The notes beneath the pieces were generated by a model. It had not been told where the DNA came from. It searched no databases and was given only the letters and a program-made list of their open reading frames with translations. From an uncultured Bacteroidales bacterium (lineage in GTDB: Bacteria > Bacteroidota > Bacteroidia > Bacteroidales > JAADJA01): a stretch of 64,000 bases of DNA. The DNA lies in NCBI GenBank assembly GCA_963708435.1, contig CAVPSZ010000023.1, positions 72,765 to 136,764 of the forward strand, read 5' to 3'. A program made the position numbers and the translations under genes. Of the stretch, positions 1,260 through 57,349 are shown one piece after another. Every line of letters starts with the position of its first letter. Position 1 is the first letter of the stretch.

Positions 1260-1269
1260 TGATTTCTTT

Positions 1270-6072: not shown

Positions 6073-6088
6073 TTTCGAATTAATTAAC

Positions 6089-6163
6089 CACCCATCCGCA
6101 AGCGGATGGGGAATCTTGGCGGAACGTATATTTTACTAACCTGCCGAAGGGCAGGAGTTCGGC
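6089..6163. repeat. GC-rich double-hairpin intergenic repeat (REP-like), copy 1
   Basis: Two hairpins: CCATCCGC-AA-GCGGATGG and CTGCC-GAAG-GGCAG. The reverse complement aligns with 53699-53722 and 53795-53830 (CGAACTnCTGCCCT..CGG.CAGG and GTTCCGCCAAGATnCCCCnTCCGnTnGCGGA). Confidence 0.6.
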
Positions 6164-6202
6164 TAAATTATTTTGTTACTTAAAATTATAGTCTCATTAA
6201 TT

Positions 6203-18800: not shown

Positions 18801-19292
18801 GGAAAACCTGATGCACGCTCCAATCTTTTCCAAGTGCATTTTCATGTTAAACCGGATGGCGTTTTGTTGAATGAAGCCGGGTTGAATGAATACGCCACAC
18901 TTGAAGAATTACAGCAGGCTTCCGACGGCTGGTTTTATGATCCGGCTGAAAAATTGGGAATCGTTCATATTAAAACCCAATCCTTGCCAACCAATGCTTC
19001 CTTCCAGGTTAAACTTTTGGCTGTCACAAACGTGCCTGATGGTCAAACAGAGAAAGGTATCAGGATGTTCCCCAATCCAACATCAGGATCAGTTTTAGTT
19101 TCGTCCGATGACAGCATTTGGCAGATCAGTGTTTACGACTTCAATGGAAAACCTATAATCAGTAAAACTCATTTAAGCAACAATAATAAAAATGTTAAAG
19201 TTGATCTTTCAACGTGGCCTAATGGAGTGTATTTTCTTGAAGTAAAAACTGAATCTGGCTCAGTAAGCCGAAAGATAAATTTAGTGAAATAA
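15813..19292 (+). CDS. glycoside hydrolase family 31 enzyme with N-terminal LamG-like domain and T9SS C-terminal domain
   Basis: LamG-like block (DELRIWN). GH31 catalytic blocks (ACKLDVAWVG as candidate nucleophile region, VWSGDQSG as acid/base region). C-terminus MFPNPTSGSVLV...WPNGVYFLEV. The likely true start is the ATG at 15879 (MKTICRLYYIILILVF signal peptide). Confidence 0.75.
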   Translation: MIKTIFKLGIIFNFTPAKKNNDMKTICRLYYIILILVFINISFELHSQYSLDFNGEGDYVALNGTDITPPWTMEIMVNKNETDNYQHLLTGTDGNSGIRIEQWWGTQVGFTQSGVMDWYFNYVCPLGQWIPLAITNNGTTSKLYVNGTLNSSVNASINFPMKWISKNTNDASLKAKIDELRIWNIVLSDAVILQYAGQTVEPSHPNYVNLLHYYKFDEGSGNICYDSKGALNGTIYGAVYYFPTNNDAGVLKLVAPENSPDNYSWEEPLIVRVKNFGAQNITEDFTVSYSLQGTLQETKTIPAGTVPLLSNQTIDVEFTSVNLNASGSYNFEFYTSLQNDENAQNDTLTKTLVSVSNVIGNITNFSVDTCTALITCGTTKVRVIFYKDEMFRIWLAPNGNFSNPAGNNIVVSYNFPLISINWSDEGNYYKISTNELVLRAYKNPLKFALYQFDNTTEIWNEAYGLDYGTRTFQYLETADNEYFYGGGMQNGYFSHKGTKIKISKETENWDNGAVPNPVPFYMSTYGYGCFRNTFSPGEYDFRGSAYTRTSHNENRFDCFYFYGPSLKEILNGYTELTGRPSLIPRWGLELGDADCYNLNGQTTPDVIELVADPYRNNDLPGGWILPNDGYGCGYTDLPNVVSELHERGFWTGLWTEDGVSQIAWEVGTAGTRACKLDVAWVGAGYQNALNACKAAYNGIEQNCNDRAYVWSVCGWAGTQRYSVVWSGDQSGNFEYIRFHIPTFIGSGLSGYNYASSDVDGIFGGSSTSYVRDLQWKTFIPVTYCMSGWAANDKHPWNYGTNITNINRNYLKLKMRLTPYLYTYCNAAFESGIPVVRAMLLEHPEDPVCLDKTTQYQFMSGEWFLVAPVYKPFLERDSIYFPAGKWIDYWSGNVYQGPETLNDYPADLSKCPVFVKAGAIIPMYPEMLYDNQYPKDPVTFDIYPHGYSSFELYEDDGISREHRNGAFAKTLIESEGPIFGNGGDVIITVNESAGTYEGKPDARSNLFQVHFHVKPDGVLLNEAGLNEYATLEELQQASDGWFYDPAEKLGIVHIKTQSLPTNASFQVKLLAVTNVPDGQTEKGIRMFPNPTSGSVLVSSDDSIWQISVYDFNGKPIISKTHLSNNNKNVKVDLSTWPNGVYFLEVKTESGSVSRKINLVK

Positions 19293-37912: not shown

Positions 37913-39400
37913 ATGAAACAGCTTTTTACACTATTTTTATTGGCATTACTGAATATCCCCAACCTTTTTACTCAAAATGTGAACGGGATAATAATTTCAG
38001 ATTCGGCAAATCTGACTGTTGTTAAAATTTGGGGAACCCATGAAGAAAGAGGATTGGCATACGGCTATCTGCTGGGAGAAGAGATCAGTGATATGGTAAC
38101 CAATTATATGCTGCCAATTTTGGGAACGCACCATGATGAAGCTCGTCAGGTTATTATCGATGGTGAAGATATTTCAATTGATCCGGAATTTGTGCAGGAG
38201 GCGATGGCCATGGTAGAAGGAATGAACATGGCTGGTACCAATTACGCAAATATAGATTATATTGACGGCCTTATATCCAATGCTTTTCTCGATATCCTGA
38301 AACTACTCGGACTGGCTGCCGATGGACCGGGATGCTCCAGCCTGATGAGCTGGGGAGACGCAACCTTAGGAACCGGCCTTGATGGAAAATCGGTTATCTC
38401 AAGGCACCTGGACTGGACACCCCATCCAACGCTGATCAATAACCAGGTGATGGCAATCCATTTTCCGTCGGAAGCAGATGAGCAGCCCTGGGCTTTGGCA
38501 GGATTTGCAGGGCAAATGAGTGTACTTTCGGGATTCAATCAGCATATCGCCGTCTTTCAGCACATGATGAGCGATTTTTCAGGACCGACCGTTCATCATG
38601 CCGGATTTGAACCTGTATGGCTCACCCTTCGGAAATCTATTGAAAAGCTCGACTTTAATAATGACGGAGTTAACAATACTCAGGATGTTTGGGATGCCGT
38701 AAATCAAAACACCATGGGCTATGCCGACGGATATATCCTAACCGCTTTGGCTCCTTCCACCGCCGGAGCCGACAGCCTGATCGCACTGGTAGCAGAGGTT
38801 ACACCTCAGGTACCCCTGATCACTTTCCGGACTAATTCATATCCGGATGCCATTCCCGGAGATAATCTTTACGCTGCAAATTATGAGATCAAAAGGAATA
38901 ATCATAACCATTATTGCCCAAGATATACGGCTGTCAAAGTTGCGTTAGGCGACGGAACAGGAATCGGACTGGAAGAAAACTGGCAGATCATGCGCGATTA
39001 CTCCAACTCTTCTTTCGGGAATATCCAGTTCATGCAGTTCAGTCCTGAATCGGATCTGTTCAGAATCTCTGTTTTCAGGGAGAATGCGCCAGCATACCAG
39101 AAACCACCGGTTGATTTTACCATTTCCGGGTTGTTTTTGCTGCCGGTTGGAATAACTAATCATAATCAAAATTCTGAAAGGTTTTTATTCCCTAATCCAG
39201 CCTGCTTTGAAATTCATGTCAGGTTTGATAAGAATGTGAAGGGAAGTAATTATCAGATTTATTCAATAGATGGTCATATTGTTTCAGAGGGAGAAATTGT
39301 TGAGGAATATCAAACTATTTCCATTCAACATCTTAAAACTGGAATTTACTTCCTAAAAAAAGACATTAATGCGGGAATTAAGTTTATTAAGTATTACTAG
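37913..39400 (+). CDS. secreted C45/Ntn-hydrolase-like protein with dockerin/EF-hand-like loop and T9SS C-terminal domain
   Basis: Signal peptide. GPGCSSLMSWGDATLGTGLDGKSVISRHLDW resembles the Gly-Cys autoprocessing site plus the RN.DW block of C45/choloylglycine-type Ntn hydrolases. LDFNNDGVNNTQDVWDAV looks like a Ca-binding loop. C-terminus FLFPNPACFEIHV...LKTGIYFLK. Confidence 0.45.
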   Translation: MKQLFTLFLLALLNIPNLFTQNVNGIIISDSANLTVVKIWGTHEERGLAYGYLLGEEISDMVTNYMLPILGTHHDEARQVIIDGEDISIDPEFVQEAMAMVEGMNMAGTNYANIDYIDGLISNAFLDILKLLGLAADGPGCSSLMSWGDATLGTGLDGKSVISRHLDWTPHPTLINNQVMAIHFPSEADEQPWALAGFAGQMSVLSGFNQHIAVFQHMMSDFSGPTVHHAGFEPVWLTLRKSIEKLDFNNDGVNNTQDVWDAVNQNTMGYADGYILTALAPSTAGADSLIALVAEVTPQVPLITFRTNSYPDAIPGDNLYAANYEIKRNNHNHYCPRYTAVKVALGDGTGIGLEENWQIMRDYSNSSFGNIQFMQFSPESDLFRISVFRENAPAYQKPPVDFTISGLFLLPVGITNHNQNSERFLFPNPACFEIHVRFDKNVKGSNYQIYSIDGHIVSEGEIVEEYQTISIQHLKTGIYFLKKDINAGIKFIKYY

Positions 39401-39597
39401 CGTGTTGTGCGGTTTAAATTCCATAAAATTGATTTTGTGAAACTTAGTGTCTTCGAGTCTTCGTGGCAGTGTAAAAATTTTGCCACAAAAACACCAAGGC
39501 TCAAAGATCCACCAAGAATAATTAAATTGGATATCAACCAATTAAAATGTGAAAAACAAATTTGATTCAAAATCTTGTGATCAAATCGCACAACACG
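39401..39597. repeat. 197-bp intergenic element bounded by 11-bp perfect inverted repeats
   Basis: CGTGTTGTGCG (39401-39411) pairs with CGCACAACACG (39587-39597), and there are further imperfect matches outward. The interior contains GTCTTCGaGTCTTCGTGGCAgtgtaaaaattTTGCCACaaaaacacc, a hairpin and word content typical of Bacteroidota intergenic repeats. That content produces the spurious ORFs at 39353-39541 and 39397-39591. Confidence 0.6.
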
Positions 39598-42464
39598 TTA
39601 TTACTAATTCTTCTGCCTCCGGTACGATTTTCTTCGTCACTTTTTCCTCGCCGCGCTTCACTACGATCTCCGTTTCCACATCGGGCTTCAGGTCGTTCAG
39701 GATGTTCATGAAGTCATAAATGTTATTGACCTCTTTGCCATTCAGAATGATAATAATATCATTTGCAATCAACCCCGCTTTTTCGGCTGGCCCTCCTGGT
39801 CTTACGCCCTGAATCTGAACACCCGGCTCATCGCTGCCGGCATAGGCCGGAATGGTTCCGAGAGATACCGAAGCCGCACCCTTGCTTGATTTTTGACGGT
39901 TTACTTTCACTTCCTGGTAAGTCAGCGGTTGTTCGGGTTTCATTATTTCTTTGATAAGTAAGGAAGAAAACTTTGTTATGCGCTGCATGCCCTCAAAATT
40001 GATGAATTGAACATCATCATTATAAGTGTGATAATCGTTGTGAACACCGGTAAAGAAACTTGCCACGGGAATCCCTTTCAGATAAAAGGAAGTGGCATCG
40101 GTGGGCAAATAGGGATCTTCTCCCATCACCAGGTTAAAACCCGAAACTACATTTTTCCTTTCGGCAAGTGACTTCCATTCTGTGGCAGATCCGATACCCT
40201 GCAATTCGAGGCGGTTATCTTTCAACCGTCCGACCATATCATAGTTGAGGTAGGCTTTGATCTTTTCTTTATCTATTGGTAATTTTGAAGTGAAGCTATT
40301 CGATCCGAGAAGCCCCAGCTCTTCTGCCGACCATAAGCAAAAGACGAGATTACTGGTAATTGAAGCGGGATTGTCTTTTTTCATCCCTGCGAAATATTCG
40401 GCAAGCTCGATGATCGTTACTGTTCCTGATCCATTGTCATCAGCTCCGTTGTGAGCTTCTGTTTTGTGTTCACCCACTGAACGGGAATTCACCTCACCCA
40501 ACCCCAAATGATCGTAATGAGCGCCAATGAAAATATAGGCAGCCTCCGGATTGTCAGATGGAATCATACCTACGATATTATTATCCTGTTCGATGATACG
40601 ATCAATTTTGGCGACAATCTTTACATTGGCGGCGGTTGCAAAGAGGTGTTCATTTACTTTTGGATCTCCATCTTTCAGTTTTTCCTTTAAAGCATCTGTT
40701 GCTTGATTCGATTTAGCAAGAATTTTATTCGCCAGTTCTTCGGAAATATTGATCGAAATAATTCCTGAAGTACCGACAATTTCATGACTTGTTTCGTCAT
40801 GGATTTTCGGAGATACAATCAAAATCGCTTTGGCGCCGTTCTGCCGGGCAAGCATTTGCTTGTAACCACTTGCAATGTTGCGCTCGAAAAGTTTTTCCTT
40901 TTCTTCATCCAGGCCTGAGGGAATTCCATCCAAGCACCATCACAATTTTATCCTTCACATCGATCTTTTCGTACGAATTGTATTCGTAGCCGGCACCATC
41001 ATTGATTTTCAATCCGTAACCTGCAAAAACCACTTCTGCATCAACCTCCCCATTCTCCGTTGATGAAAGCGGTATAAAGTCCTTATTCAATTCAAATTCT
41101 TTTCCATCCAAAACAAAATGGTTTGACCCTGGTTCGGATTTTATGTCTGCCGTAAAATCAAATGACCAGTAATAATCAGCGTGGCCGCCTAATGGCTGCA
41201 ATCCCTGTGCTTTAAAAATGCCGGTGATATAATCCGCAGTCATTTGAATTCCTTTGGATCCCGTCATGCGGCCACCTGTAGCATCCGAAGCGATATATGC
41301 CAGCTTTTCCTGCATTTCCGATTCGAGGATCTCAGGTTTGAACTGATAATTCAGGCTTCCGGTAGTGTTTTTCCGGAAAGGTGATTTTGCCAGTTGTTCC
41401 CGTGCAAAGGTATCGTTCCAGCCGGCAATAAAAAGCTGGGTTTTACCATCGGTGCACCGGCTGGAAGTCCAGACTAACTTTTTCCCATCCGGTGAAAAAA
41501 CCGGCAATCCGTCAAATTTGTCGGTATAGGTTACCCTTACAGGTTCCTTTAACCCTTCCGCATCAACCATGTAAACCTCAAAGTTTGTATAGCCAAGCTT
41601 ATTGGAGGCGAAAACGAGGTAATCTCCTGAGGGATGAAAGAAAGGTGCCCAACTCAAACTTCCGAAGTCAGTTAGTCTTTTTTCACCGGTTCCATCCACA
41701 TTAATGGTATAAACATCTGCCGAATGCCCGTCTTCACTAAACCTGCGCCAGGTAATTTTTTTCCCGTCATTTGAGAAAAATGGGCCTCCGTCGTATCCGG
41801 GAACATTGGTCAGTTGCTTTAGTCCGCTGCCATCGGCATTCATTAAATAGAGATCGCAGAAATAGGAGGGATCAACCTCTAACTTTTGTTGTTCTTCTTT
41901 GGTAAGCTTCGAATTATAGGCATAGCGGTTGGAACTGAAAACAATCAGCTTTCCATCCGGTGAATAAGAACCCTCAGCGTCATAACCCAGCTCAGTTGTG
42001 AGTTGTTTAATATCAGAACCATCCGGCATTGCGGAAAAAATATCCATTTCCGGTTCATAATCCCAGGCATATCTCTTTTTCTGTCCTGATGCCCTGAAAT
42101 CTAATTCTTCTTTTTGTTTTTTTCTTGCATCCGGATCGAGGTGACTGGAAGCATACTGTACCCTTTTGCCATTCCACTGAAAATAGGCACAAGTTGTTTT
42201 GCCATATCCGGGTGAAACCCTGTTTATATCACCAGTTTCAAAATCGAGAATATAGATTTGATAAAATGGATTGTCAGGCTCTTTTTCACTCTGGAAGATC
42301 AGGTAGCGTCCGTCTTCGGAAAAATATCCCTCACCCGAACGGTTACCGTCATAAATTAATTGGCGGGTATTTGAAAGAAATTTGTTTTCGAGGTTCTCAG
42401 TTTCCTGAGCAAAAGAAAGGATGGCAATAAATAGTGCCGGAAGCAAAAAAAATTGTTTTTTCAT
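39581..42464 (-). pseudogene. TolB-like beta-propeller + PA domain + M28 aminopeptidase + PDZ fusion protein, one frameshift near 40930
   Basis: 40905-42464 carries a signal peptide, PD40/WD40-like propeller repeats (SPDGK..VF.S.R) and the start of the PA domain. 39581-40933 carries the M28 block (GAHYDHLG...GADDNGSG...LWSAEELGLLGS) and a C-terminal PDZ. Removing one G from CTTGGATGG joins IVMVL-DGIPSGLDEEK. Confidence 0.8.
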
Positions 42465-42623: not shown

Positions 42624-43988
42624 ATGAATAAACTTTTCTTCAAATTAATCGCCTTCATTTCATTGAATTTGTTTTTGGTTTTAACAGTTCAAACTCAAAA
42701 TTATGTTACAACATATGCCGGAACGGGAAGCGCCGGGTTCGTAAACGGGGATACAAGCGTGGCAAGCTTTAACAAACCATTTGGTATTTGCATTGACCAG
42801 GAAGGAAATTTATATCTGGCTGATGCTTACAACAATTGTATCCGGAAAATAAGCAATGATGGAATGGTGACAACTTATGCTGGAACCGGGACAGCCGGCT
42901 ATTTGGATGGACCTGCTACAGAAGCAAAGTTCAATCAGCCGATCAATATTTGCCTCGATGAGGAAGGAAATATGTACGTGTCGGATTTCCTGAACCAGCG
43001 GATAGGAAAATTTCTTCGGATATGATGGTCACAACCATTGCCGGTACAGGCGTTGCTGGATTGCTTGACGGACCTGCTGAACAGGCAAAATTCAATTACC
43101 CGAGAGGTATTTGTCTGGATGATACCGGCAATATTTACATAGGCGACTCCTGGAATCACCGTGTCAGGAAAATCTCTTTGGATGGAATCGTTTCTACCTG
43201 GGCAGGAGGCGGAACGACCATAGGCGTTCAGAGTGTAGGAGATTATGTGGATGCCAGCGATACAGCAGCGCGATTCTATACACCCTGCGAATTGTCTATT
43301 GATTTATCAAACAACATTTTTGTCGCCGATGCCTATAATCACCGCATCCGGAAAATTGATCCTGAAAGAATGGTGACTACTGTTGCCGGCAGCGGATCTT
43401 CAGGACCGGATGCCGGAGGATTTCAGAACGGACCGGCTGACCAGGCATTGTTCAAAGTGCCAACCGCCTGCCATGTCAGTCTGACCGGTTCGATTTATGT
43501 TGGTGATGGACAAAACCAGCGGGTTCGAAAAATAAGCCCGAATGGCATTGTCTCAACCTTTGCAGGTTCAGGAGAAACCGGATTTGAAAACGGTCCTGAT
43601 TCGCTGGCAACATTTAATTTTCCCCGGAGGATGCGTGATGGATTATCAGGCTCACCGATTGTATGTTGTGGATTTTAACAATCATGCGGTAAGGATCGTT
43701 CATTTATCGGAAATAACAGGGATTGAAAATAAGGATACTGACAAGGAGTTTTCAATTTACCCAAATCCGGCAGGAAATGAAATTCTGATTAGAGGAGGAA
43801 TTGATCAATCCAATCTGACCATTCTTATTTATCGTGCTACAGGCCAATTGGTAAAAGAAGAACATAGGTATAAAGGAACGCCTATGGTGGTAAATATCTC
43901 TGATCTTGAAGGTGGGATATATTGTATTGGATTTCTCAGTCACAAGGATTTTTTGGGTTATAGAAAGATCATCGTTATAAACAAATAA
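42624..43988 (+). pseudogene. NHL-repeat beta-propeller protein with T9SS C-terminal domain, 2 frameshifts
   Basis: Three collinear fragments (42624-43025, 43022-43678, 43542-43988). Each has NHL repeats (F..P.GI..D..GN.YVAD..N..IRKI...G.V.T.AG.G). The tail is FSIYPNPAGNEILIRG...LEGGIYCIGF. Frame breaks are near 43010 and 43625. Confidence 0.8.
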
Positions 43989-44040: not shown

Positions 44041-45599
44041 TTGTAATAAGTTCATTTATTAAAATATCAGGGCAACGTACTGGTTTTTCCAGTGTTAGAC
44101 TTCCAGGTGTCATTCTTATCCTGGTTCTGCACCTGGCCATTCAAGTCATAATCGCCTGCGAAGATAACCGCGTTTTGCCGCATCGGCATTCCAGACAGCA
44201 TTCACATCCTGGTGTGATGGTGACCTGGCCGTCGGCATCGCCATCACCGGCAACCATACCAAACCGTGGCGGGCTGCTGCCAATTTGCTTATAGCCGGTA
44301 TGTGCCGCCATATGCTTTGTTAAGCGATCGGAGAAGTCATAGCATATAAACTTCACCATCCAATGTTGCACCCTGATTACTCAATAACAGCCAGATGATT
44401 GCGATGATAAACAACTACATAACAGTGAACCCGACAATTGCGGATTACCGATCCAGGGAAGATTAGTGCCATCCATATCAACGATCGATCCGTCATTTTT
44501 AAGGAAGGCTGCTTTCCGCCAGAATAAGAATCACTGTTTGCCGAAGCGGTAGGAGCTGAAGCATCCCGCCATTCGATCAATACCCAGTCGACAACATCTG
44601 CTGGCATAGTTGTTACCTCTTCATCTACCTGGATAATTCCATGGTGAACCCTGGTAAGGCTGCGATAAGCGGCAACAGATCCATTATCCCTGAGGCTTGG
44701 TTTCCATCAGGTCATTGCATTTCATCATAAGGACCTTCAAGGAAGATCTTCGCATCAAGCTGCTTCGGGAAAGTCGAGAATGGCTCAGGACCTGCCCATG
44801 AGCTTTGAACAACCGGAGAACACTTGCTCTGAACATAGAATTCGTAGTACGATTCAGGAGTTAAACCTGTAATGGTCAATGGTTTCGTTGAAACATTGGA
44901 AAGCATCGTACCCGTTCCGGGTGTAAAGCCAGCCGGGCCATATTCAACATTCCATTCCTGTTTCAGTATCACCGGGCTCCCAATCGAGGATAGCTTCGTA
45001 TAGGTAATATACCTGTTGATCAGCCCGGATGGGTTTGCACAAAATACTTCACCCAGGGTAAAATCACCAAAGGCATCGAATACGGTAAAGTTGGTGTAAT
45101 TGGGTGCAGTGGTGGAAACGGTATTAATATTGAACCCATCGCCCCGCATCATCCAAACAGACCCTACCGGATTAAATCCGGTGACATTCAGGGTGAGTGT
45201 AAAGGTAAAATTAATGCCACCGGTTTGCGAAATAATCCAGTAATGATCAGCATACGAGGTTATATTGCCGGGAATGGTTCCCGGGATCGTTCCTCCGATA
45301 TATTCAACATCCACCATACTGGTTCCTGTCAGGGTTACATAGTTGAATACCATAGGTCCATAGGTCGTGGCTGTTCCAACCGGGAAATATCTCGACCCGA
45401 TAGTATTGTACCCGCAGCGCAATCTGCCGTAAATGTAGGCCGTTGCTGATCCACCAGTGATAGTTCCTGAAGGCATTACAATAAATACATAAGTACCGGT
45501 TGTAATGATTCCTTCGGTAAGGATCAGCTCATAGTGAACCGTCACATTTCTGTTCAGCAAAATTCCATAGGGGTTGTTGACCCTGAAGCGGTAATAGCC

Positions 45600-48500
45600 C
45601 GTTTCATTACTTCCTCCGATGGTTTGCTGAACCGTACCTATAAAATGAATATAACTTGTGCTATAAACAAATATTCCGTTATTGATCCAGTTACCATGAA
45701 TGTAATGCTCGTATGAACCTGCATCGAAATGGTTCGTTATGGTCAGGTCACCGTAAATGGTCAGTGAACCGTTTGCAGTAATGGTCCCTGTCCTGGCAAA
45801 GACAACATGATAGAAATTGTTCGTGCCGAGAAGCAGGTTCTGTGAACCCACAAACCGTATCCTTGAAGTTCCGTGGACAAAGGTGCCGTTATTGATCCAG
45901 TTCCCATAAACATAATGATCGTAGGTAGCTGCATCAAAATGATTCAGAATGGTCACATCACCATAAAAATACAATGTACCCGTTGCTGTCACCGTACCGG
46001 AGCATGCAAAAATAACATGGTAGAAATTGCCTGCACCAATAAGGATACTTCCTGAACCGACGAAGCGAATGGTAGAAGTATTGTAAACAAAGGTTCCGTT
46101 GTTGGTCCAGTTGCCATACACATAATGGATATAAGGCCCGGCATCAAAATAATTATTGATGGTCACATCGCCATGAATGGTGAGTGAACCGGTTGCTACA
46201 ACAGTTCCTGTTCCGCCAAAAATAATATGGTAGAACTCATAATCGCCGATGTATACATTGCCCGAACCACTGAAATGGATGGTAGAGGTTCCATAAACAA
46301 ATACCCCATAATTGTACCAGTTGCCGTAAATGTAATGGACATACGATCCGGCATCGAAGTAATTATTGATGGTCACATCACCATAAACATACAATGACCC
46401 GGTTGCAGCAATGGTTCCCGTCCCTCCGAAAATGATATGGTAGAAATTACTGCCACCAATCAGGATGCTTCCTGTTCCGGTAAAATGAATGGTTGAAGTA
46501 CCGTAAACAAAAGTTCCGTTGTTGGTCCAGTTACCATAGACATAATGGACATAAGCTCCGGCATTAAAGTAATTGTTGATGGTCACATTGCCATGGAAGA
46601 TCAGTGTTCCGGTAGCTGTTACAGTGCCGCTTCCACCGAATACCACATGATAGAATTCCTCAGGATTCAGGAGAATATTTCCCGTTCCGACGAAATGAAT
46701 GGTAGAGGTTCCGTAAACGAAAATTCCATAATTGTACCAGTTTCCATAAATATAATGCTCGTAAGAACCGGCGTCGAAATAAGTGTTGATTGTAAAATCA
46801 CCATAAACCGTAAGCGAACCCGTGGCTGTTATTGTTCCGGTGCTGGCAAACAGGATATGGTAGAAATCGCTCTCACCGATCAGGATGTTGGTACTTCCGA
46901 GGAAATGGATCGTGGAAGTGCCGTACACAAAAGTACCCGTGTTGGTCCAGTTGCCGTAAACATAGTGAATGTATGATCCGCCACCGAAATTAGCCGGTGA
47001 TGTTCACATTCCCGTAAATGGTCAGTGATCCGGTTGCCGTGACGGTTCCTGTTCCTCCGAATATCACATGATAGAAGTTTCCGGCATTGACAAAGCTGAT
47101 CCCTGTTCCCATGAAATGAATGGTAGAGGTTCCATAAACAAAGACACCATTTACCGTCCAGCTTCCGTAAACATAATGTGTGAAAGCCCCGGCATCGAAG
47201 TAGTTATTGATGGTCACGCTACCATAAAAGGTAATGGAACCTGTGGCAACATAATTTCCCGTACCGGCAAAGACAACATTGTAAAATTCATTCGTGTTGA
47301 TATAGATATTAACAGTCGCCGAAAAATAAATGGTCGAAGTTCCGTAAATAAAGGTGCCGTTATTGATCCAGTTCCCGTATACATAATGCGCAAACGATCC
47401 GGCATCAAAGTAATTATTGATTGTCACATCACCCCAAATGGTTAGCGAGCCTGTTGCTGTTATGGTGCCCGTCCCTCCGAAAATGATATGATAGAAATTA
47501 CTTCCGCCAATCAGGATGCTGCCTGTTCCGGTAAAATAAATAGTTGATGTGCCGTAAACAAATGTACCGTTAACGATCCAGTTGCCATACACAAAATGGG
47601 TAAATGATCCCGCATCGAAGTAGTTATTGATGGTCACATTCCCATAAAAGGTAATGGAACCTGTGGCGGTGTAAGTACCTGATCCGGCAAACACAACATG
47701 ATAGAATTCATTCGTGCTTATGAATAAGTTAACAGTCCCGACAAACGTGATGGTTGATGTCCCATAAACAAAAGTCCCGTTATTGAACCAGTTGCCATAA
47801 ACATAATGAACAAAAGATCCCTGCATCGAAATAATTGTTGATGGTCACATCACCATAAATGGTTAACGATCCGGTGGCAAAAACTGAGCCTGTTCCTCCA
47901 AAGACAACATTGTAAAAACTGCTTGCCCCGATATAAATGTTCACTGTTCCAACGAAATAAATGGTTGAAGTTCCATAAATGAACGTTCCGTTGTTGGTCC
48001 AGTTACCATAAATATAATGCTCGTATGAGCCTGCATCAAACGTACTGTTGATGGTCACATTCCCATAGAAATTAAGCGAGCCTGTTGCAATGAAAATTCC
48101 GGTACCGCCAAAGATCACATTGTAGAAATCGTTTTGGGTGATGGTTATATTCCCGCTCCCGATAAACTCAACGGTAGAGGAACCATAATCGAAAATGCCA
48201 TTATTTACCCAGTTTCCATAAACACTGATGGTGTATGTCCCTGCATAAAAATTGGTAGTAATGGTAATATCACCATAAATGGAAATTGATCCGCTGGCAT
48301 AGTATGTTCCCGTTCCGCTGAAAATAATGTTATAGAAGGTACTTGCGCCGACATAAACGGTTCCGGTTCCAACAAAATTAACAGTAGAAGTCCCATAAAC
48401 GAATGTGCCATTGTTGATCCAGTTTCCATAAACATAATGGACAAAAGACCCGGCATCGAAATAATTGTTGATGGTCACATTGCCATAGAATGTCAACTGC

Positions 48501-49060
48501 CCTGAAGCAATTACAGTTCCGGAACATGCAAAAATTACATTGTAAAAATTGCTTGCACCAATGGTAATATTTCCGGTTCCACTGAACTGAATGGTCGATG
48601 TTCCCTGAACAAAGGTTCCATTGTTGATCCAGTTTCCATAAACATAATGGGTAAATGCTCCGGCATCGAAGTAATTATTGATGGTAATGTTGCCATAAAT
48701 GGATAAAGAACCCGTTGCTGTGTAGGTACCCGATCCTGCAAAAATGATGTTGTAGAAATTGCTGATGCTGATATAGTAGGTTGCCGTACCCATGAACTGG
48801 ATGGTGGATGTGCCATAAACAAAAACCCCGTTGTTGATCCAGTTCCCATAAACATAATGGGTAAAGGAGCCTGCATTGAAATGATTGTTAATGGTCAAAT
48901 CTCCATAAACGGTCAATGATCCGGATGCTGTGATGGTGTCAGAACCGGCAAAAACAACATTGTAAAAATTACTTACACTGATAAAGATATTCACAGTGCA
49001 GTGTGAAATAAACAGTTGCCGTTCCTGGAATGAAAATGCCGTCATTGGTCCAGTTTCCGC
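45600..49060 (-). repeat. tandem array, about 16.5 copies of a 210-bp (70-aa) coding repeat
   Basis: Unit consensus: YGTSTIhFxGTGxIxIGxSNFYHIIFGGTGTxTATGSLTIYGDVTINNYFDAGSFxHYVYGNWxNNGTFV. About 6 copies lie in ORF 47780-49045, about 4 in 46990-47826 and about 6.5 in 44712-46928. Confidence 0.85.
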
Positions 49061-50516
49061 CCAGGGTGATATTGTGGTTGTTCACATCCAGCGTTCCGGC
49101 AATGATATGGATATTCCCGCTGATGCTGATCGCTTGTGAAAGGGTAACCACCATTCCCGGTGCATTGATGGAGATATTGCCCGGTGTGTTTTGAACCAGA
49201 GCATCACCCGTAAACTGGTTTGAGGTTCCTGTGAATACATAATGTGCTCCTGAGTAATAGGTTCTTGACCCGGTTACCTGAATATTACCAGTGTTGTTGC
49301 TAACTGTAATACCAGCCGAGGAACCAACATGAATGGTACCTCCGGCAACGATCCTGAAATGTCCTGCACCATTAACAACCGCTGTCGAATGCATGATCAG
49401 GGTTCCGTTGACAGTGAGGGTATCACCTGAAATGATTCCCAAATGCAACATCATTCTGCACTTCAAGGATACCACCTGCATCGACGGTCACATTTCCGAA
49501 ATCAACGGCAGCATCAACACTGATTGTGTGTCCGTCACGAACAACTGCAAGTGGATTTGGACATACAATACCGGCTGAAGAAGGATAATCAACAGCATCC
49601 ACCCAGGTGGTTCCGTTAAAGTATTCCCATGTTGCGATGTTATCCCAATCCCCTGAGTTTTTAGTTCGGTAGCGGTCTCTTCCTTCAATGGAGATTTGGA
49701 TTGTATCCGAAGATGCTGCTCCAGACCAGTCAGGCATACAAGTTACTCTTGCCAGTCGCCTGAACCAGGTGGTTGCGGTTAAAACACTCCCGTATGATAA
49801 CCCCTCTGAGTTGCTTCCCGGAATGTCATTGAACACCATGTTATCTGAAGAGGATTGCCATTTATATTCCAGTATACCAATATGTCCTGTGGCAGGATCA
49901 ACACTGGTAAATGAAGCTGGAACCGTCCCGAAGCAGATGGTTTGAGAGGAAGCAATAGTTCCGCCATCTGTGGGATTTGAGCAAGGCGCTCCTTCCAGCG
50001 TTGTAAAAGTTACCGGCCCTGCCCATGAACTAACTGTATTCTCATAGCAGGCTGATCTGACATAGAAATCATAGGTTGTATTTGAACCCAGGCCAAATAA
50101 ACCAAAATTATTGCTGTAAACATTGCTGATCAACGTTCCTGTTCCCTGGGTAAATCCAGTTGGTCCGTACTCAATGTTCCAGGCTGTCTCCATATTAGCC
50201 TGCGTCCAGTGCAGAATAGCCGAATTTTCAGTGGTATCCGAAACAGATAAAGCTGTGGGTTGTGTGCAGGTATAAACTGAAACCTGTTTTATCGTGGTAT
50301 CGGGGCAACCTTCTGCTGAGATCAGGATTAGCCTTGCATTATAAGTACCGGCAGCTGGATAGGTATGGGTAAATCCATGATTATAGGTGTAATCTGTTAC
50401 ATTATCACCATTTACGTCCCAGCGATATTGTGTGTTTCCATTTGTGCTGGTTGAAAGGTCAGTAAATGTGGTGCTATTTCCAAGCCATACATTATTTGCG
50501 CTGAAATCAGCCTGCG

Positions 50517-51882
50517 GAGTATGGCAGAACTGGTCGAGAAGCGTCAAACTCCATTTGCCGTTTTCATCCCTTATCCTGAGGAAAAGCATGTGGTTGCCCA
50601 TGATGAGCTGACTAAGGTCAACTTCGAAATTCAGGTCAGTCACATTCGAACTGGGATTAGGTATCGGAATTTGAATTCCTGAACCAATACCCGGATCGGT
50701 ATCAATGAAATACTCGGCCTTAGTTAGTAAAGGATTTAAAACGTTAACAACCTGTTTCAGGAATGGACGCCTGGAGGTCAGGCTCCATTTGCCTTCTGTA
50801 TCCTTCACCCTGACATAGAGATTATGAAATCCATCCGGTAAGGAACTCAGGTCAATGCTAAAATCGAGAACTGCATTGGATCCATTCGGGGTAATGGGAA
50901 CCGAAGTACCCTGTCCGAAACCTGGATCGGTATCAAAAAAATACTCAGCCTTAGTGAGCAAAGGATTTGGAACGGTAACAATCTGTTTCAGAAATGGACG
51001 CCTGGAGGTCAGGCTCCATTTGCCTTCCGTATCTTTTACCCTCACATAGAGATGATGAAACCCATCAGGCAACGAACTCAGGTCAATGCTAAAATCAAGA
51101 ATTACATTGGATCCATTCGGGGTTATGGGTACAGAAGTACCCTGTCCGAAACCCGGATCGGTATCGAAGAAATATTCAGCCTTGGTGAGCAAAGGATTTG
51201 GAACGGTAACATTCTGTTTCAGAAATGGACGCCTGGAGGTCAGGCTCCAATTGCCTTCTGTATCTTTCACCCTCACATAGAGATGATGAAACCCATCAGG
51301 TAAAGAGCTCAGGTCAATGCTGAAATCGAGAATTGCACTGGATCCATTCGGGGTAATGGGCACTGAAGTTCCCTGTCCGAAACCCGGATCGGTATTGAAG
51401 AAGTACTCTGCTTCAGTAAGCAAAGGATTTGAAACTGTTATCACCTGTTTCAGGAATGGTCTGCGGTTGGTAATGCTCCATTGCCCCTGCTGATTTTTAG
51501 TCCGCACATAAAGGTGATGAAATCCATCTGGCAATCCGCTGATATCAATGCTGAAATTAAGGTTGGAAAGTTCGGGTCCGGCAGTAATGGGAACATTGGT
51601 TCCGTTGCCCGGCCCGGGATCGGTATTAAAGAAGTATTCAACTTTCGTTAAATCGTACAATGGTGTGGTAACTGTGTTTTTATAAAATGCACGATTATGC
51701 GTAAAGCTCCATACTCCATTCTCATCTTTTGCCCTGACAAACAGTCTATGAAAACCGTCGTTCAAGCCGGAAATGCTGGTGCTAAAGCTGAAATTGCTAA
51801 GGTCGGGGGCGGGAGGTGTCACAGCCACCTGGGTTCCGGCTCCAAATCCCGGGTCGGTATCGTAGAAATACTCCACCTTCAC
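50517..51882 (-). repeat. six tandem 77-80-aa 'EYFxDTDPGxGxG' repeats; the middle three (50716-51408) are near-identical 231-bp units
   Basis: The repeats are read directly from the 867-aa translation. The antisense ORFs at 50855-51049 and 51086-51280 differ in only 5 of 64 residues, confirming the 231-bp period. Confidence 0.85.
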
Positions 51883-52046
51883 GAGATTCTGCGCCAGCGC
51901 ATTCCCGGCCATAACCAGCATCAGCAACATCAGCAGCAAAAAGCCTGATGGTGCGGGCAATGGTCTATGGTTCTTCCAATTATTTATCATAACTATATCT
52001 TTTTTTATAATTAACTTCAAAGGCAACTCCTTCGAAGTGAAAACGA

Positions 52047-53030
52047 TTAGTTATGTGACTTGGCCTTTAAGTTTACATCGAGGGTATTGGAAGGTAACGA
52101 TTGGGCATCCAGATCGTAAATAGCCGGGATTGGAGGCATACCGCTGAGTTTATAAGGATAATCACCGCCATACATACCGATATCTACACCTTCTTCACCT
52201 GCTCCGATTGCCGGTGATCCGGATTTTAAGTTTCCATTGTCCGTCGGTGCTGTTGCCGGTTAATCCAACAAACAATGCACTCGCAGGAACATTCTGCTGG
52301 TTGCCATTCAAAGTACCAAATTGGGTGGAGTTCCCAATGTTGTAGGTTGCGATGCAATTGCTTAAAGTTACAGAAGATAGAGCTATGTTGTTGACAAGTG
52401 TAGAATTATAAATGCCAATGGGATAACCAAAAATATTATTTGATAAAAAATCCGCTGAAAGTTGCGCTAGTGCTTACAGAACCGGCAAAATAATTATTCG
52501 AAACAAGGATATTTGAATGTGTATAACCAAAATTTAGGCAATATCCTGATATATCCAAAATAATTATTTCGTATTATAATATTCGAACAGTTACCTTGCG
52601 GATAAATTGAATAAGTTGAATAAAAGTAGTTTCTTTCGATGGTAATATTATTTACATTAACATAGATTGAATATAAGAAAGTACATCCGATAAATTTTGA
52701 CCCTTCACTGCCTGCTGAGCAATATACATAAGAATCAAAAGGACTTATATTTTTGTAGTACTGGGTCTCAGGATTCTCAGTTAAAAAATAGCCAGTTCCT
52801 ATGATAGTAAGTTTTTTTGACAGGCTCAACCCACCTACAGCAAGGGTAGAACCTTCAAGATACAACGTATCGTTGTTTAAAGTAGTAGCCGCATTATGCG
52901 CAGCCTGTGCAGTTGAATAATGCGCACTGGAATTTGGTGTTGGGTTCACCCGCCAAACTTTGGCAGAAACGTTAACACTGGCAACAATCAATGTTGCAAT
53001 CATCATCGAAGTAAAAGTTTTTGTTCTCAT
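52047..53030 (-). pseudogene. secreted beta-helix-like protein, frameshifted
   Basis: 52494-53030 has a signal peptide (MMIATLIVASVNVSA) and parallel beta-helix-like N-rich turns. Downstream frames (own translation) continue ...NVPASALFVGLTGNSTDGQWKLKSGSPAIGAGEEGVDIGMYGGDYPYKLSGMPPIPAIYDLDAQSLPSNTLDVNLKAKSHN*, with a stop at 52047-52049. There are at least 2 frame breaks. Confidence 0.55.
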
Positions 53031-53320
53031 AATGTTAATTTTAAAGTTGTTAAATAATATTTTTTATTGTTTTAATTCAATTCATTATCCCAAAAAGACA
53101 ACCCGGCAAATTTATCGGGCAGAATAGAATTACACAATACTACTTTAATGTGATTTTTTGAAGTATCAATTGTTTTGTGATACAAGATTAACTGGCTTTT
53201 TTGTGAAGGGAAAAACAGGCATGCAGGGAGAATATCCCGGTAGTTTGAGTTTAAGAGAAGTTGATCAGTAATGATTATGAGTTTGGTAGAATTTACTATT
53301 TATGCTGACTTCTATTTAAT

Positions 53321-53556
53321 AACTGATGTTACGCAAGCATATTTTTATTTGAGTTAATTTGAGATTCCTCATTTCGCTTTGCTTCATTCGGAATGACAGG
53401 TTTTGTATATAGTTATGGGTGGTCGCTGTGCCACGAGGCCTCGTGGCACAGCGACCACCCTAAAAAAACCCAACACCATGTCATTCCGATCCGCCAGCCG
53501 GCGGAGAGGAATCTCCATTTTATCACCTAAATTTATGTTCTTGCGTAACATCAGTT
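53321..53556. repeat. 236-bp nested inverted-repeat element with a perfect 44-bp central palindrome
   Basis: Outer arms AACTGATGTTACGCAAG (53321-53337) / CTTGCGTAACATCAGTT (53540-53556). Middle arms GAGATTCCTC...TTCGGAATGAC (53361-53397) / GTCATTCCGA...GAGGAATCTC (53480-53515). Core GGGTGGTCGCTGTGCCACGAGG|CCTCGTGGCACAGCGACCACCC (53417-53460). Confidence 0.85.
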
Positions 53557-53698
53557 AATGATTCCTTTTTACAACAAATAATAGGTAATGAAATCTTGTT
53601 ATTTCCATGTTATATGGAGTATAACAGAAATATAACATAACGAAATTGCTGACATTAAATCAGTGAGAATATAATTTTGAGAAACAAAATTATTTAGG

Positions 53699-53830
53699 CG
53701 AACTACTGCCCTAACGGTCAGGCGGGGATTAAGAGCGGAGTCGAGTGATCATACGGGTTATATTCTCCTTCATTTGTGGTGAATATAATATTAAGTTCCG
53801 CCAAGATACCCCGTCCGTTGGCGGACGAGG
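53699..53830. repeat. GC-rich hairpin repeat (REP-like), copy 2, split by a ~72-bp insert
   Basis: CGAACTACTGCCCTAACGGTCAGG (53699-53722) and GTTCCGCCAAGATACCCCGTCCGTTGGCGGACGAGG (53795-53830) match the reverse complement of 6089-6163. Confidence 0.6.
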
Positions 53831-53980
53831 TATTTAATTGGCAATCTGCTTTAATAAGTTTCAGTTACAGCTGTGCTTTCGTTATTTTACCATTTAAAAA
53901 ATAACTGCCAGGTCGATTAATTCCTTACGAAGCAGAATAGTGGAGCCCGTACTTCAAAACAGATCATTCAATACCTGGCG

Positions 53981-56900
53981 TTAGGGTATTTGAATACCCA
54001 AGCCTTCATAAAGAATCCAAAGTTCATTTTTATCCTTGTTATCCACCTGTCCATCGAGGTTAAAATCACTTTCGAGATAACCTGTTTTTCCCGCCTGGAT
54101 CATCCACCTAACGGTTTTGTCAGAACTGTTTATTTGACCATCCGGCAAGGCATCGCCCGGGATCATTCCATAAATGCCGGGTGCAATTTCGGTCTGAGCA
54201 TCTGTGCCATAAGCCTGGCTTGGTCCGGAAGTAAAATCGTAGGCAAAGGTATCATTGCCGTTGAAAATCATCGGGCTTGCCGACATAATCCCGAGGTGAT
54301 TCCTGTGCCAGACAATAACATACAATTGGTGAACAGGAGAATAGTTGAATAGCAGGAGGGAAGAACCGTCCAATCCGACCACTTTTCCGTTACTCAGAAG
54401 AAAGGCCGCCTTTTTTGCAACAGTAGTTGCACTGGTTGCCGTTTCGGGCCCACCGGGAGTTTCACGAAGCTCAATCACCACCCAGTCAACAATATTGGGT
54501 TGTGGGATCAAGGTTACGGATTCAGTTCCCGGGTAATGCCAGATAGCAGCAGGATTATTATAGGGTTGCTGGAGTGGTAAATAGTTCATTAAGTTGAGGC
54601 TTGTATTCATAATTACCGGACCGGAGGCTGGTTTATAATCTCCGCCAAGAATTACATCCAGATCAACCTTAAAGCTGGAAAGGACAATGCTGACTTTATA
54701 ATCTTCTACTTCGCCATTGATTACAAGTCCATTAAAACTGATCGTCCCGCTATAATCCCTGAACCTGAAACGGGCATAGGAAGTTCCAACAGAAGCTGTA
54801 CCCGGAACATTAAAGGATAAATTATTAGCACCTGCAACAAGGGGAGTACTGGTGAAAATATGTTCACTCGCATCAGCCCAGTCATTGTCGAGGTTGAAAT
54901 CCATCCATGCATCGAGGTAACCATTTACTGAAGCATTTACGGTTATAGAAACCAAAGAACCTTTCTGAACCGAAGCTGGAATAGTTACCCCATCCTCATC
55001 ATCCCCAAAGGAGGGATAAATGCAATCCGAGTCATCACAATTGGCATTTGCACCGGGTTGTCCGTCGGGTTCGGGATCAACCTGACTCCCTAAGAAAATA
55101 CCGGGGACATAAGTGTGGCGGGCGCCATTGAAAGCGAGTAGTTGTTGGATATTTTCCAGTAGCATTTTCAGGTGCATCTCCAAAATCGTATTCAGGATCA
55201 GCTTCCTGGATGAAAACTGTATAATCTTCCACTTCGCCATTCGCAACCAAGCCCGTTGAAACTGATGTTTCCACTGGCAGTGCGGAATCTGAAACGAACA
55301 TAGGATTGTCCGACTGAAGCATTTGCCGGAATCGTCAATGAAAGGATGTTTGATCCTGCAGTCAAGGCTGTATTGGTAAAAATATGTTCTCCGGCCTCGG
55401 CCCAACTTCCATTTAAGTTAAAATCCATCCATGCATCGAGGATTCCACTGACCGAAGCGGTAACAGTAATTGAAACATTCGTTCCCTTAGTAACGGAAGA
55501 CGGAAGAATAACCCCATCCTCATCATCACCCAGTGAAGGGGCCAGACAATCGTTGTCATCGCAGTTGGCTGACGCGTTAGGCTGTCCATTGGTTTCCGGA
55601 TCAACTTTGCTTCCAAGGAAAATACCGGCAACGATGGTATGTCGTGCGCCATTGTTAGCCAACAGAGTAGGATAAGAAGGATCAGGAGCATCGCCAAAAT
55701 CAATATTTCCCGGAGAGGAGGCTGTGATGTTTACTTTATAATCTTCCACCTCACCATTGAGTACAAGTCCGTTATAACTTATTGCTCCGCTATAATCCCT
55801 GAACCTGAAACGGGCATAGGAAGTTCCGGTAGAAGCTGTGCCCGGAACATTAAATGATAAATTATTTGCCCCTGCAACAAGCGGAGTACTTGTGAAAATA
55901 TGTTCACCTGCATCAGCCCAATCCTGATCAAGATTGAAGTCCATCCATGCATCAAGGTACCCATTTACAGATGCAACAACCGTTATTGAAACCGAAGAAC
56001 CTTTTGCAACCGAAGCAGGAATCGTAACTCCATCTTCATCATCACCAAAGGAAGGATGAATACAATCCGAATCATCGCAATCGGCATTAGCACCGGGTTG
56101 TCCGTCTGGTTCGGGATCAACCAAACTTCCGAGAAAAATACCAGGAACAAAAGTGTGACGTGCTCCATTGAATGCAAGGGTTGTCGGATAATTTCCGGAA
56201 GCATTTTCAGGAGCATCCCCAAAGTCGTATTCCGGATCAGCTTCCTGGATGAAAACCGTATAATCTTCCACTTCCCCATTCGCAACAAGTCCGTTGAAAC
56301 TGATGTTTCCATTGGCAGTGCGGAACCTGAAACGAACATAGGATTGTCCGACTGTGGCATTTGCCGGAACTGTAAATGTAAGGATATTTGAACCTGCCAG
56401 ACAAAGAATGAATTGGTGAAAATATGTTCTCCGGCGTCGGCCCAACTTCCATTCAGGTTAAAATCCATCCATGCATCGAGGAATCCACTGACTGAAGCAG
56501 TAACAGTAATTGAAACATTCGTTCCCTTAGTAACCGAAGACGGAAGAATAACCCCATCCTCATCATCACCCAAAGAAGGAGCCAAACAATCGTTGTCATC
56601 GCAGTTGGCTGAGACGTTAGGTTGTCCGTTGGTTTCAGGATCAACTTTACTTCCAAGGAAAATACCTGAAACGATGGTATGCCTTGCACCATTGTTAGCC
56701 AAGAGAGTAGGATAAGAAGGATCAGGAGCATCGCCAAAATCAAGATTTCCCGGAGAGGAAGCTGTGATGTTTACTTTATAATCTTCCACTTCTCCATTCA
56801 ATACAAGTCCATCGTAACTGATGGTTCCGCTATAATCACGGAACCTGAAACGGGCATAGGAAGTTCCGGTGGAAGCTGTGCCCGGAACATTAAATGATAA

Positions 56901-57349
56901 ATTATTTGACTCCGGCAACAAGCGGAGTACTTGTGAAAATATGTTCACCGGCATCAGCCCAGTCCTGATCAAGGTTAAAGTCCATCCATGCATCAAGGTA
57001 ACCCATTTACAGAAGCAACAACAGTAATTGAAACTGTAGAGCCTTTTGAAACCGAAGCAGGAATTGTTACTCCATCTTCATCATCACCAAAGGAAGGATG
57101 AATGCAATCCGTATCATCACAATCAGCATTGATACCGGGTTGTCCGTCGGGTTCAGGGTCAACCATATTTCCCAGATAAATTCCCGGAAGAATGATATGC
57201 CTTGCACCATTGAAAGCTTGGGTTGTTGGATATTTACCTGCCGGGTTTTCAGGCGCATCGCCATAATCTTCCTCTTCAAGCTCAGGCAAAGGAACCTCGG
57301 CAGGAACCTGATCTAGCAAATCCGATTCCCAATCAGATAGCCGGTTCAT
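53981..57349 (-). pseudogene. GEVED-domain repeat protein B (~1120 aa) with HRNHL C-terminal module, at least 4 frame breaks, no detectable signal peptide
   Basis: Collinear fragments 56993-57349, 55983-56996, 55198-56445 and 53981-55405. Five ~173-aa domains each start (D/Y)(F/Y)GDAP(E/D) and end NGEVEDY(K/T)V. The C-terminal 230 aa is homologous to the end of gene A. Confidence 0.75.
54698..57268 (-). repeat. five tandem GEVED domains in alternating b-a-b-a-b subtypes (about 1040-bp super-repeat)
   Basis: Subtype b: ...NGARH..PGI.LG..VDPEPDGQPG.NA.CDD.DCI.PSFGDDEDGVTIPASV. Subtype a: PSYPTLLANNGARHTIV.GIFLGSKVDPETNGQPN.SANCDDNDCLAPSLGDDEDGVILPSSV. The antisense ORFs at 55346-55675 and 56413-56715 are near-identical with a 1040-bp offset. 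Confidence 0.8.

Follow-up and report, generated by a model that had tools for sequence, protein, structure and literature searches.

What does a large C-terminal tail do for secreted proteins when it is not the canonical sorting tail of a type IX secretion system (T9SS)? The question is raised by a stretch of 64,000 nucleotides (hereafter the window) from an uncultured Bacteroidales bacterium of the lineage JAADJA01 (contig CAVPSZ010000023.1, positions 72,765 to 136,764). Two of its genes, here called A and B, lie on the minus strand and close with a homologous C-terminal module of about 225 amino acids (aa), the HRNHL module. A first-pass annotation, made from the letters alone, had noticed the shared tail and proposed that it could be an alternative sorting, anchoring or calcium-dependent docking domain for very large cargo. 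The module is found here to be an X-module-like beta-sandwich fused to a divergent dockerin, and its probable role is that of a calcium-dependent cohesin-docking module.

The shared module and its family

The features of the two tails are given below. That of gene B lies in one open reading frame (ORF), while that of gene A is broken by frame changes and was located from hidden Markov model (HMM) matches in three frames.

53984..54676, minus strand: gene B module, 231 aa, uninterrupted, beta-sandwich plus dockerin, within ORF 53981..55405
54164..54676, minus strand: residues 1-171 of the gene B module, X-module-like beta-sandwich, model strands E2-7 to E168-171
54293..54307, minus strand: HRNHL motif of gene B, residues 124-128, from conservation in 71 homologues
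53984..54163, minus strand: residues 172-231 of the gene B module, dockerin-like pair of calcium-loop/helix repeats and the conserved ..Q[VI]P C-terminal tail
54119..54154, minus strand: predicted calcium-binding loop 1 of gene B, residues 175-186, DALPDGQINSSD, with Leu at position 3 where the family has Asn or Asp
54032..54067, minus strand: predicted calcium-binding loop 2 of gene B, residues 204-215, DFNLDGQVDNKD, canonical
44070..44765 (stop codon 44067-44069), minus strand: gene A module, about nine frame changes, stitched from the three-frame HMM matches
44392..44406, minus strand: HRNHL motif of gene A (YVVVYHRNHLAVI)
44118..44153, minus strand: predicted calcium-binding loop 2 of gene A (DYDLNGQVQNQD), canonical

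The gene B tail contains every string quoted in the first-pass annotation, for example IVDWVVIELRETPGG, WHRNHLGIMSA and DFNLDGQVDNKDKNELW, and scores 303.7 bits against the family profile. The gene A tail uses all three frames, with about nine frame changes in 700 nt. It was rebuilt by matching a profile from homologues to successive pieces in alternating frames, locating the junctions and stitching the pieces together. The resulting peptide of 221 aa covers profile positions 3-224 (213.5 bits, E 2.4e-67), keeps the conserved positions of the family that can be seen in the profile alignment, and is 38% identical to the gene B tail (81/211 columns). A raw tblastn search of the window with the gene B tail recovers the gene A tail at E 1e-9, so the similarity is far above chance on this match alone. 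Since the rebuilt peptide also fits the full profile, the shared module is real, as had been claimed.

The family to which the two copies belong is large. A word-indexed search returned 101 relatives, with E-values down to 1e-107. When a profile of the module alone was run in a full HMMER scan, over clusters at 50% identity, it gave 15,934 clusters at E<=1e-3 and 5,401 at E<=1e-30. In an alignment of 71 homologues, P38, W65, G97, N126 and H127 are invariant, and D64, E69, R71, H124, R125, L128, F148, D175, D186, G199, Y200, D204 and D215 are nearly so. The sandwich is marked by two signatures, VDWVxxELR and HRNHL, the latter conserved at 95% (H124), 97% (R125), 100% (N126), 100% (H127) and 92% (L128), and the module terminus is conserved as ..Q[VI]P[ED].

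The family databases searched have no entry for the sandwich. In genes A and B the module is covered by no model of Pfam or NCBIfam. When the 71 homologues were scanned one by one against Pfam, no family covered residues 1-170 and no T9SS C-terminal domain (CTD) model matched; the Pfam and NCBIfam scans of 106 relatives together with genes A and B likewise gave no sandwich family and no T9SS CTD model. By the sources searched, the N-terminal beta-sandwich of about 170 aa is an undescribed sequence family. A literature search for the HRNHL motif returned only unrelated demographic-survey texts, and searches on dockerins and cohesins in Bacteroidetes or Bacteroidales and on T9SS found no account of the module; in one paper (PMC4189754) cohesin and dockerin appear only as generic cellulosome markers. 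What these sources do not describe is the sandwich, the 225-aa unit in which it is fused, the very large expansion of this unit in Bacteroidales and the pairing of the unit with T9SS-anchored cohesins; the dockerin superfamily itself is already known.

The sandwich and the dockerin

A dockerin segment has about 22 residues: a 12-residue calcium-binding loop (D1, N/D3, D/N5, G6, a hydrophobic residue at 8, D12) followed by a helix, with two such segments in tandem. The dockerin- or EF-hand-like loops reported at first pass are present in the module, in the pattern DxNxDGxxxxxD. Across the family both loops fit D-x-N/D-x-D-G-x-I/V-x-x-x-D, with positions 1 and 12 kept in 90-97% of members. The frequencies in loop 1 are D175 95%, N177 71%, D179 76%, G180 80%, I/V182 97% and D186 90%, and those in loop 2 are D204 97%, N206 78%, D208 76%, G209 64% and D215 95%. 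In the model computed with AlphaFold2 (AF2), the predicted loops at 175-186 and 204-215 each run into a helix (184-194 and 213-223). The dockerin pattern of two tandem loop-helix segments is therefore complete, and its ligand positions are 64-97% conserved over the 71 homologues.

Profile comparisons point the same way. Searched against all Protein Data Bank (PDB) sequences, the family profile gives 24 matches at E<=1, almost all of them dockerins (best E 0.0033) and all confined to the C-terminal dockerin stretch; the sandwich part has no sequence match in Pfam, NCBIfam or the PDB. The last 64 residues were aligned by hhalign with bona fide dockerins, namely those of neighbouring anchor proteins (two of them Pfam-positive) and three from the PDB, and match at 94.9% probability (E 4.5e-8); the 49 aligned columns take in both loops. 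As a negative control, the N-terminal 167 residues reach 0.5% against the same dockerins. Pfam Dockerin_1 itself is significant in 3/71 and 2/35 of the members scanned. As judged from these alignments, the last 60 or so residues of the module are a divergent dockerin.

The predicted fold extends the likeness to the whole module. AF2, run on the 71-sequence alignment, gives a mean confidence (pLDDT) of 96.2 and a predicted template-modelling score (pTM) of 0.93, with a sandwich at residues 1-171 followed by two helices; the model is a single compact unit in which the sandwich packs on the dockerin. In a Foldseek search of the PDB, the top 10 matches are all type II X-module-dockerin (XDoc) chains of clostridial scaffoldins, at probabilities of 0.91-1.00 over 188-239 aligned columns. 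Their target-normalised template-modelling scores range from 0.30 to 0.63, and from 0.50 to 0.63 for six XDoc chains of about 156 aa. On the strength of the loop pattern, the PDB profile matches, the hhalign result and the AF2 and Foldseek results, the module is an X-module-like sandwich fused to a divergent dockerin.

The type II XDoc units of C. thermocellum CipA and A. cellulolyticus ScaA (PDB 2b59, 4u3s, 5g5d, 3kcp) are thus the closest structural analogue. In both, an immunoglobulin-like beta-sandwich stands directly before, and is packed on (in the module, by prediction), a two-repeat calcium-binding dockerin at the extreme C-terminus. XDoc units end multi-cohesin scaffoldins; some homologues of the module, though not genes A and B, likewise end multi-cohesin scaffoldin-like proteins, and there the adjacent gene encodes a cohesin, the candidate partner, on a putative cell-surface anchor. 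The differences are several. Firstly, no sequence homology between the sandwich and X modules is detectable, the identity in the structural alignment being 12-15%. Secondly, it has about 170 aa, while X modules have about 100, and it carries an invariant HRNH/W/E/R signature of its own. Thirdly, its hosts are diderm Bacteroidales in which the anchor is a T9SS CTD and not a set of S-layer homology (SLH) repeats, and the module is found on many cargo proteins beyond scaffoldins, with cohesin binding predicted. The dockerin part resembles type I dockerins (PF00404) in its duplicated 12-residue EF-hand-like loop plus helix and in its ligand positions. Unlike these, it invariably comes joined to the HRNHL sandwich, and most members are too divergent for the Pfam model, which matches about 5% of those scanned.

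Distribution, cargo and candidate cohesin partners

The module is encoded in at least 586 stretches of GTDB species genomes. The top 80 stretches all come from metagenome-assembled genomes (MAGs) of uncultured Bacteroidales, Bacteroidetes or 'Chlorobiota', and several MAGs hold many module paralogues each. One contig labelled Candidatus Thermoplasmatota (L088, 7915-12709) encodes three consecutive module genes. Their neighbours carry archaeal Pilin_N domains, and the contig is probably archaeal. One of the three genes has two tandem modules; in another, the module is followed by a Pro/Gly/Ser linker and a C-terminal transmembrane anchor. Because these modules are about 50% identical to Bacteroidales copies, their sequences suggest lateral transfer.

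The position of the module was counted in the 147 best cluster representatives. Its end lies three residues or fewer from the C-terminus in 107 of them (73%) and within 30 aa in about 90%, so that it is mostly, and not always, C-terminal. In 25 of the 147 there is an extension of 4-30 aa, mostly a repeat of the ..GYKCQVPE ending; in 11 a Fib_succ_major domain of about 210 aa follows, and four have other continuations. Tandem arrays of two, three and five copies occur. At one locus (L005) a copy at residues 29-251 stands ahead of Fib_succ_major; at another (L011) an internal copy (555-776) is found in a protein with a genuine Por_Secre_tail end; in the protein P0113 a module copy is N-terminal and a CTD C-terminal. 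The module and Por_Secre_tail co-occur in 1/248 proteins and 1/117 ORFs.

The module directly followed by Fib_succ_major is a recurrent second architecture, making up about 7% of module proteins. Carriers are P0138, P0179, P0184, P0192, P0195, P0196, P0209, P0213, P0223, P0229 and P0244, and the gene at L005 3333-4727.

The cargo is varied, also in length. The 147 representatives range from 254 to 3,230 aa, and the commonest proteins among the closest relatives in the word-indexed search have about 297 aa and consist of a signal peptide, a short 'LTQGFQQP' motif and the module. The suggestion that the tail serves very large cargo is therefore not supported. Cargo domains include Laminin_G_3, GEVED, Peptidase_C25 with its propeptide, PKD, FG-GAP, MAM, BACON and cohesin. 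By a simple heuristic, N-termini are mostly of the signal peptidase I (SPI) type, with 119 SPI-like against eight lipoprotein-like.

The mini-proteins of about 297 aa have a motif of some 50 aa (S.GGY...SLSWTLGE...LTQGFQQP) between signal peptide and module. Examples are P0017, P0022, P0035, P0037, P0046, P0060 and others, as well as L001 8001-8894 and L005 8001-8885. They often lie amid large unannotated proteins, some of which match Fib_succ_major, Peptidase_S74 or PTL_trimer. A 297-aa ORF in the window (3311-4204) was ruled out as one of them, since the module HMM finds only the copies of genes A and B there.

A candidate for a specific partner gene, which the first-pass annotation had thought worth seeking, was found in some lineages. 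A recurrent gene pair is present in L002/L003, L023, L031, L037 and L045, that is, in five MAG lineages (the domains of L002 are from precomputed Pfam). The first member of the pair codes for a large beta-helix protein that also has a classical dockerin, a single cohesin and a Por_Secre_tail CTD. The second, directly downstream, encodes a signal peptide, three or four cohesins and the HRNHL module at the C-terminus, and more module genes often follow. In L031 the anchor-like gene lies at 2-3208 and the scaffoldin-like gene at 3193-6672; Pfam finds cohesin in the latter (89 bits) and Dockerin_1 with Por_Secre_tail in the former, while the L087 anchor has Cohesin, Dockerin_1 and Por_Secre_tail together. 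By analogy, the pair resembles the anchor-and-scaffoldin layout of a cellulosome. One to four cohesins stand N-terminal to the module in 11/248 module proteins, and every multi-cohesin protein of the fetched loci and the 248-protein set has a module end. A homologue search with the L031 anchor cohesin gave a single match.

Another possible partner is encoded at L082 (1805-2317), 1.4 kb upstream of a 973-aa module protein. This 171-aa protein has a lipoprotein-like signal (..LLLLFAC) and one cohesin and, from its sequence, may be a lipid-anchored cohesin.

The docking reading and its alternatives

Taken together, homology, domain content, predicted fold, ligand conservation, distribution and gene neighbourhood make it probable that the module docks to cohesins in a calcium-dependent manner; cohesin binding, calcium dependence and location at the surface are what we infer from them. 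The immunoglobulin-like sandwich of about 170 aa would pack against the C-terminal dockerin of about 55 aa with its two predicted calcium-binding loop-helix repeats. Module-bearing proteins would be exported by Sec, and the dockerin face, buttressed by the sandwich, would bind a partner cohesin when calcium is present; the sandwich could widen the cohesin interface, as in type II XDoc. Two kinds of partner may be envisaged in related Bacteroidales. One is the beta-helix protein with a dockerin and one cohesin, whose type A CTD would place the cohesin on the cell surface via T9SS, and the other the scaffoldin-like protein with three or four cohesins and the module at its own end. Genes A and B would then encode cargo of a surface or adhesin type, tethered non-covalently to a T9SS-anchored cohesin lattice and having no direct T9SS CTD link.

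Several observations support docking: the dockerin homology, the XDoc-like fold and the adjacent cohesin genes; a tag-like use, with 5,401 clusters, many paralogues per MAG and varied cargo of extracellular type; and the autonomy of the module, which occurs in tandem, internal, N-terminal and probably archaeal copies. Cellulosome producers use dockerins in the same way, as tags on varied cargo. A further support is a precedent in Cloacimonadota. For 'Ca. Stygibacter', a cellulosome-like system was inferred from MAGs, in which a cohesin scaffold with a T9SS CTD serves surface attachment and dockerins stand at the C-terminus of enzymes with signal peptides, Peptidase_C25 and GH18 among them (PMC8542988). 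It belongs, like the hosts of the module, to the FCB superphylum (Fibrobacterota-Chlorobiota-Bacteroidota), is likewise known from MAGs, and is the closest described system. It differs in having standard dockerins and a single giant scaffoldin (PMC8542988), where the module is a 225-aa sandwich-plus-dockerin tag and anchor and scaffoldin are separate adjacent genes.

If docking is correct, the module has a wider interest. To our knowledge, detailed accounts of cohesin-dockerin assembly come almost only from Gram-positive cellulosome producers. In the module we seem to have a dockerin-type tag, large and unannotated, of a Gram-negative lineage, with its 5,401 clusters lacking any Pfam or NCBIfam model. 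It is tied to T9SS-anchored cohesin proteins, and its cargo consists of adhesin-like repeats, gingipain-like peptidases and lectin-type domains, and not mainly of cellulases. A family definition would annotate thousands of 'hypothetical' C-termini in Bacteroidales MAGs and would also draw attention to surface assemblies of a modular kind in environmental Bacteroidota.

A number of results weigh against docking. In the dockerin itself, the gene B tail gives nothing against Pfam Dockerin_1 at E<=0.1, and in its loop 1 a ligand position (position 3) is taken by Leu. The structural match to XDoc is moderate, with a root-mean-square deviation of 5-8 Å at the low identity given above. Compared with clostridial X modules the sandwich is roughly double in size, and a function beyond buttressing is suggested by its invariant H-R-N-H/W/E/R residues. 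As for partners, neither tblastn with MAG cohesin proteins nor two home-made cohesin HMMs detected a cohesin in the window, genes A and B included, and a cohesin lies within 6 kb at only 8/88 loci. In an AF2 monomer model of P0072, which carries both cohesin and module, the module has a pLDDT above 90 and the cohesin is unfolded, below 50. Finally, most family members have an SPI-type signal peptide and no CTD, so that docking alone does not account for their passage to the surface of a diderm cell.

This last point raises a testable question, namely how CTD-less proteins cross the outer membrane in organisms with T9SS. It is tempting to speculate that the module combines a docking tag with an export route. 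It might bind a CTD-bearing cohesin partner in the periplasm, with the folded complex then passing through the very wide T9SS translocon ('piggy-back'), or it might be a fourth class of T9SS signal. Such an added export role is quite unlikely on present evidence; were it real, a large share of the surface proteome in these uncultured Bacteroidales would travel without a canonical CTD.

Among the alternatives to docking, the one that survives best makes the beta-sandwich a glycan- or cell-envelope-binding domain, similar to a carbohydrate-binding module (CBM) or lectin. It would hold proteins on lipopolysaccharide, capsule or substrate polysaccharide, and the EF-hand pair would have a purely structural role, stabilised by calcium, and bind no cohesin. 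The conserved polar and aromatic residues D64, W65, E69, R71, H124-R125-N126-H127 and F148 look like those of a ligand site, and Foldseek gives a weak match to 4iyk, a putative carbohydrate-binding protein (probability 0.44). The frequent fusion to Fib_succ_major, Laminin_G_3 and BACON-type domains would fit as well, as would the majority of module genes that have no cohesin nearby. However, the best structural matches span sandwich and dockerin jointly, as an XDoc dyad, no Pfam CBM family matches, and the module end on every multi-cohesin protein fits a cohesin-dockerin network. Glycan binding in place of docking is for these reasons unlikely.

The next alternative is the sorting function of the original proposal: the module would be a non-canonical T9SS signal, a further CTD class that is read by the translocon or a shuttle protein and replaces the type A or B CTD. 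There is a likeness to T9SS CTDs. The module is C-terminal in most proteins, as the counts above show, with a conserved ..Q[VI]P[ED] end; it has a beta-sandwich component; and it almost never shares a protein with Por_Secre_tail, the type A CTD. Its cargo (Peptidase_C25 with propeptide, PKD, GEVED) is normally CTD-bearing in Bacteroidota, its hosts have T9SS cargo, and most members have an SPI signal peptide only, yet must somehow cross the outer membrane. Moreover, CTD classes are still being added, with type C the example, and secretion by type B requires more than 200 aa (PMC10202324).

The type A CTD is a seven-strand sandwich of about 75 aa at the C-terminus. Its model (PF18962/TIGR04183) matches neither genes A and B nor the 71 relatives, while five other proteins of the window do match. 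The type B model (PF13585/TIGR04131) gives nothing for gene B at E<=0.1 in Pfam and NCBIfam, and nothing among the 71 relatives. For type C (ChiA-like, cl41395), the NCBIfam scan of gene B, which used no dedicated type C model, returned nothing relevant. No T9SS CTD structure appears in the Foldseek top 50. The separation from canonical T9SS tails drawn at first pass is thus borne out in both sequence and fold; a review of T9SS lists CTD types A, B and C and no dockerins (PMC10202324).

The same separation and the behaviour of the module speak against a sorting signal. It is two to three times longer than T9SS CTDs and contains a dockerin, with candidate cohesin partners encoded next door in homologues. 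It also occurs in tandem (two to five copies), internally, at the N-terminus, before a Fib_succ_major domain of about 210 aa, upstream of a real type A CTD and, on the probably archaeal contig, ahead of a transmembrane anchor. With its terminal 60 aa in the dockerin family and internal copies present, both of them outcomes that the first-pass annotation had named as refuting, the module is quite unlikely to be a new sorting domain; of the roles first proposed, the evidence favours docking and does not support alternative sorting.

It is highly improbable that the tail serves as a structural cap or stalk alone and carries no address, or that the gene A copy is a dead remnant, as its roughly nine frame changes and a family known from sequence alone might suggest, since the family is huge and well conserved, calcium ligands included, gene A keeps its visible family-conserved positions despite the frame changes, as expected of sequencing or assembly error, and a neighbouring NHL gene split into three ORFs in the window is intact (454 aa) in a related contig.

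As wholes, the two genes that carry the predicted docking module in the window are laid out as follows.

44067..52026, minus strand: gene A, about 2,650 aa if its frameshifts are read through, from ORFs, translations, Pfam and tandem repeats
45865-48978 and 50689-51561, minus strand: tandem-repeat regions of gene A
53981..57349 (upper end approximate), minus strand: gene B, about 1,100 aa with at least three frameshifts, GEVED-domain repeats then the module, start and signal peptide uncertain

Gene B, at its length, does not fit the first description of both genes as very large. Gene A begins with a clear signal peptide, which is followed by 77-aa repeats, PKD, fn3, about 13 copies of a 70-aa repeat, an fn3-like domain and the module. 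The 70-aa unit (..FYHIIFGGTGTITATGSLTIYGDVTINNYFDAGSYVHYVYGNWTNNGTFVYGTSTIHF..) is encoded by 210 nt and has no Pfam match; the other repeat region holds 3.8 copies of a 231-nt unit (..AEYFFDTDPGFGQGTSVPITPNGS..HHLYVRVKDTEGKWS..). About 950 nt (53031-53980), which separate the end of gene B from a broken beta-helix gene (52494-53030), have no ORF above 55 aa and no Rfam match; Rfam matches nothing in the whole window.

Five Por_Secre_tail CTDs in the window exceed the Pfam threshold, at 15813-19292, 1405-3009, 37913-39400, 43542-43988 and 57534-58137, where at least six had been counted. The string 'IYPNPGIYNVYL' at 61133-61549 (minus strand) resembles the start of a T9SS CTD and is instead a PKD-type motif.

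Frame changes are dense over 39.5-64 kb of the window, while genes in 1-39 kb are intact, including long ones such as TamB (1441 aa) and GH31 (1159 aa). Nearly all genes of the right-hand 25 kb are split by frameshifts: an M28/PD40 gene (39581-42464), an NHL-CTD gene (42624-43988), genes A and B, and a large CTD gene (57534-63399). No obvious long homopolymer runs are seen at the junctions of the gene A tail. Sequencing or assembly errors are the favoured explanation for the frame changes in gene A, because the 454-aa orthologue of the NHL-CTD gene is intact in the related metagenome contig and the gene A tail keeps its visible conserved residues.

The closest relative of the gene B tail (P0001, 72% identity) comes from a contig of Joint Genome Institute (JGI) sample 3300075153, where it is convergent to an NHL plus Por_Secre_tail gene. 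This position matches that of the gene A tail in the window. Since a relative of the B tail thus occupies the place of the A tail, the two tails may have been exchanged or rearranged between lineages.

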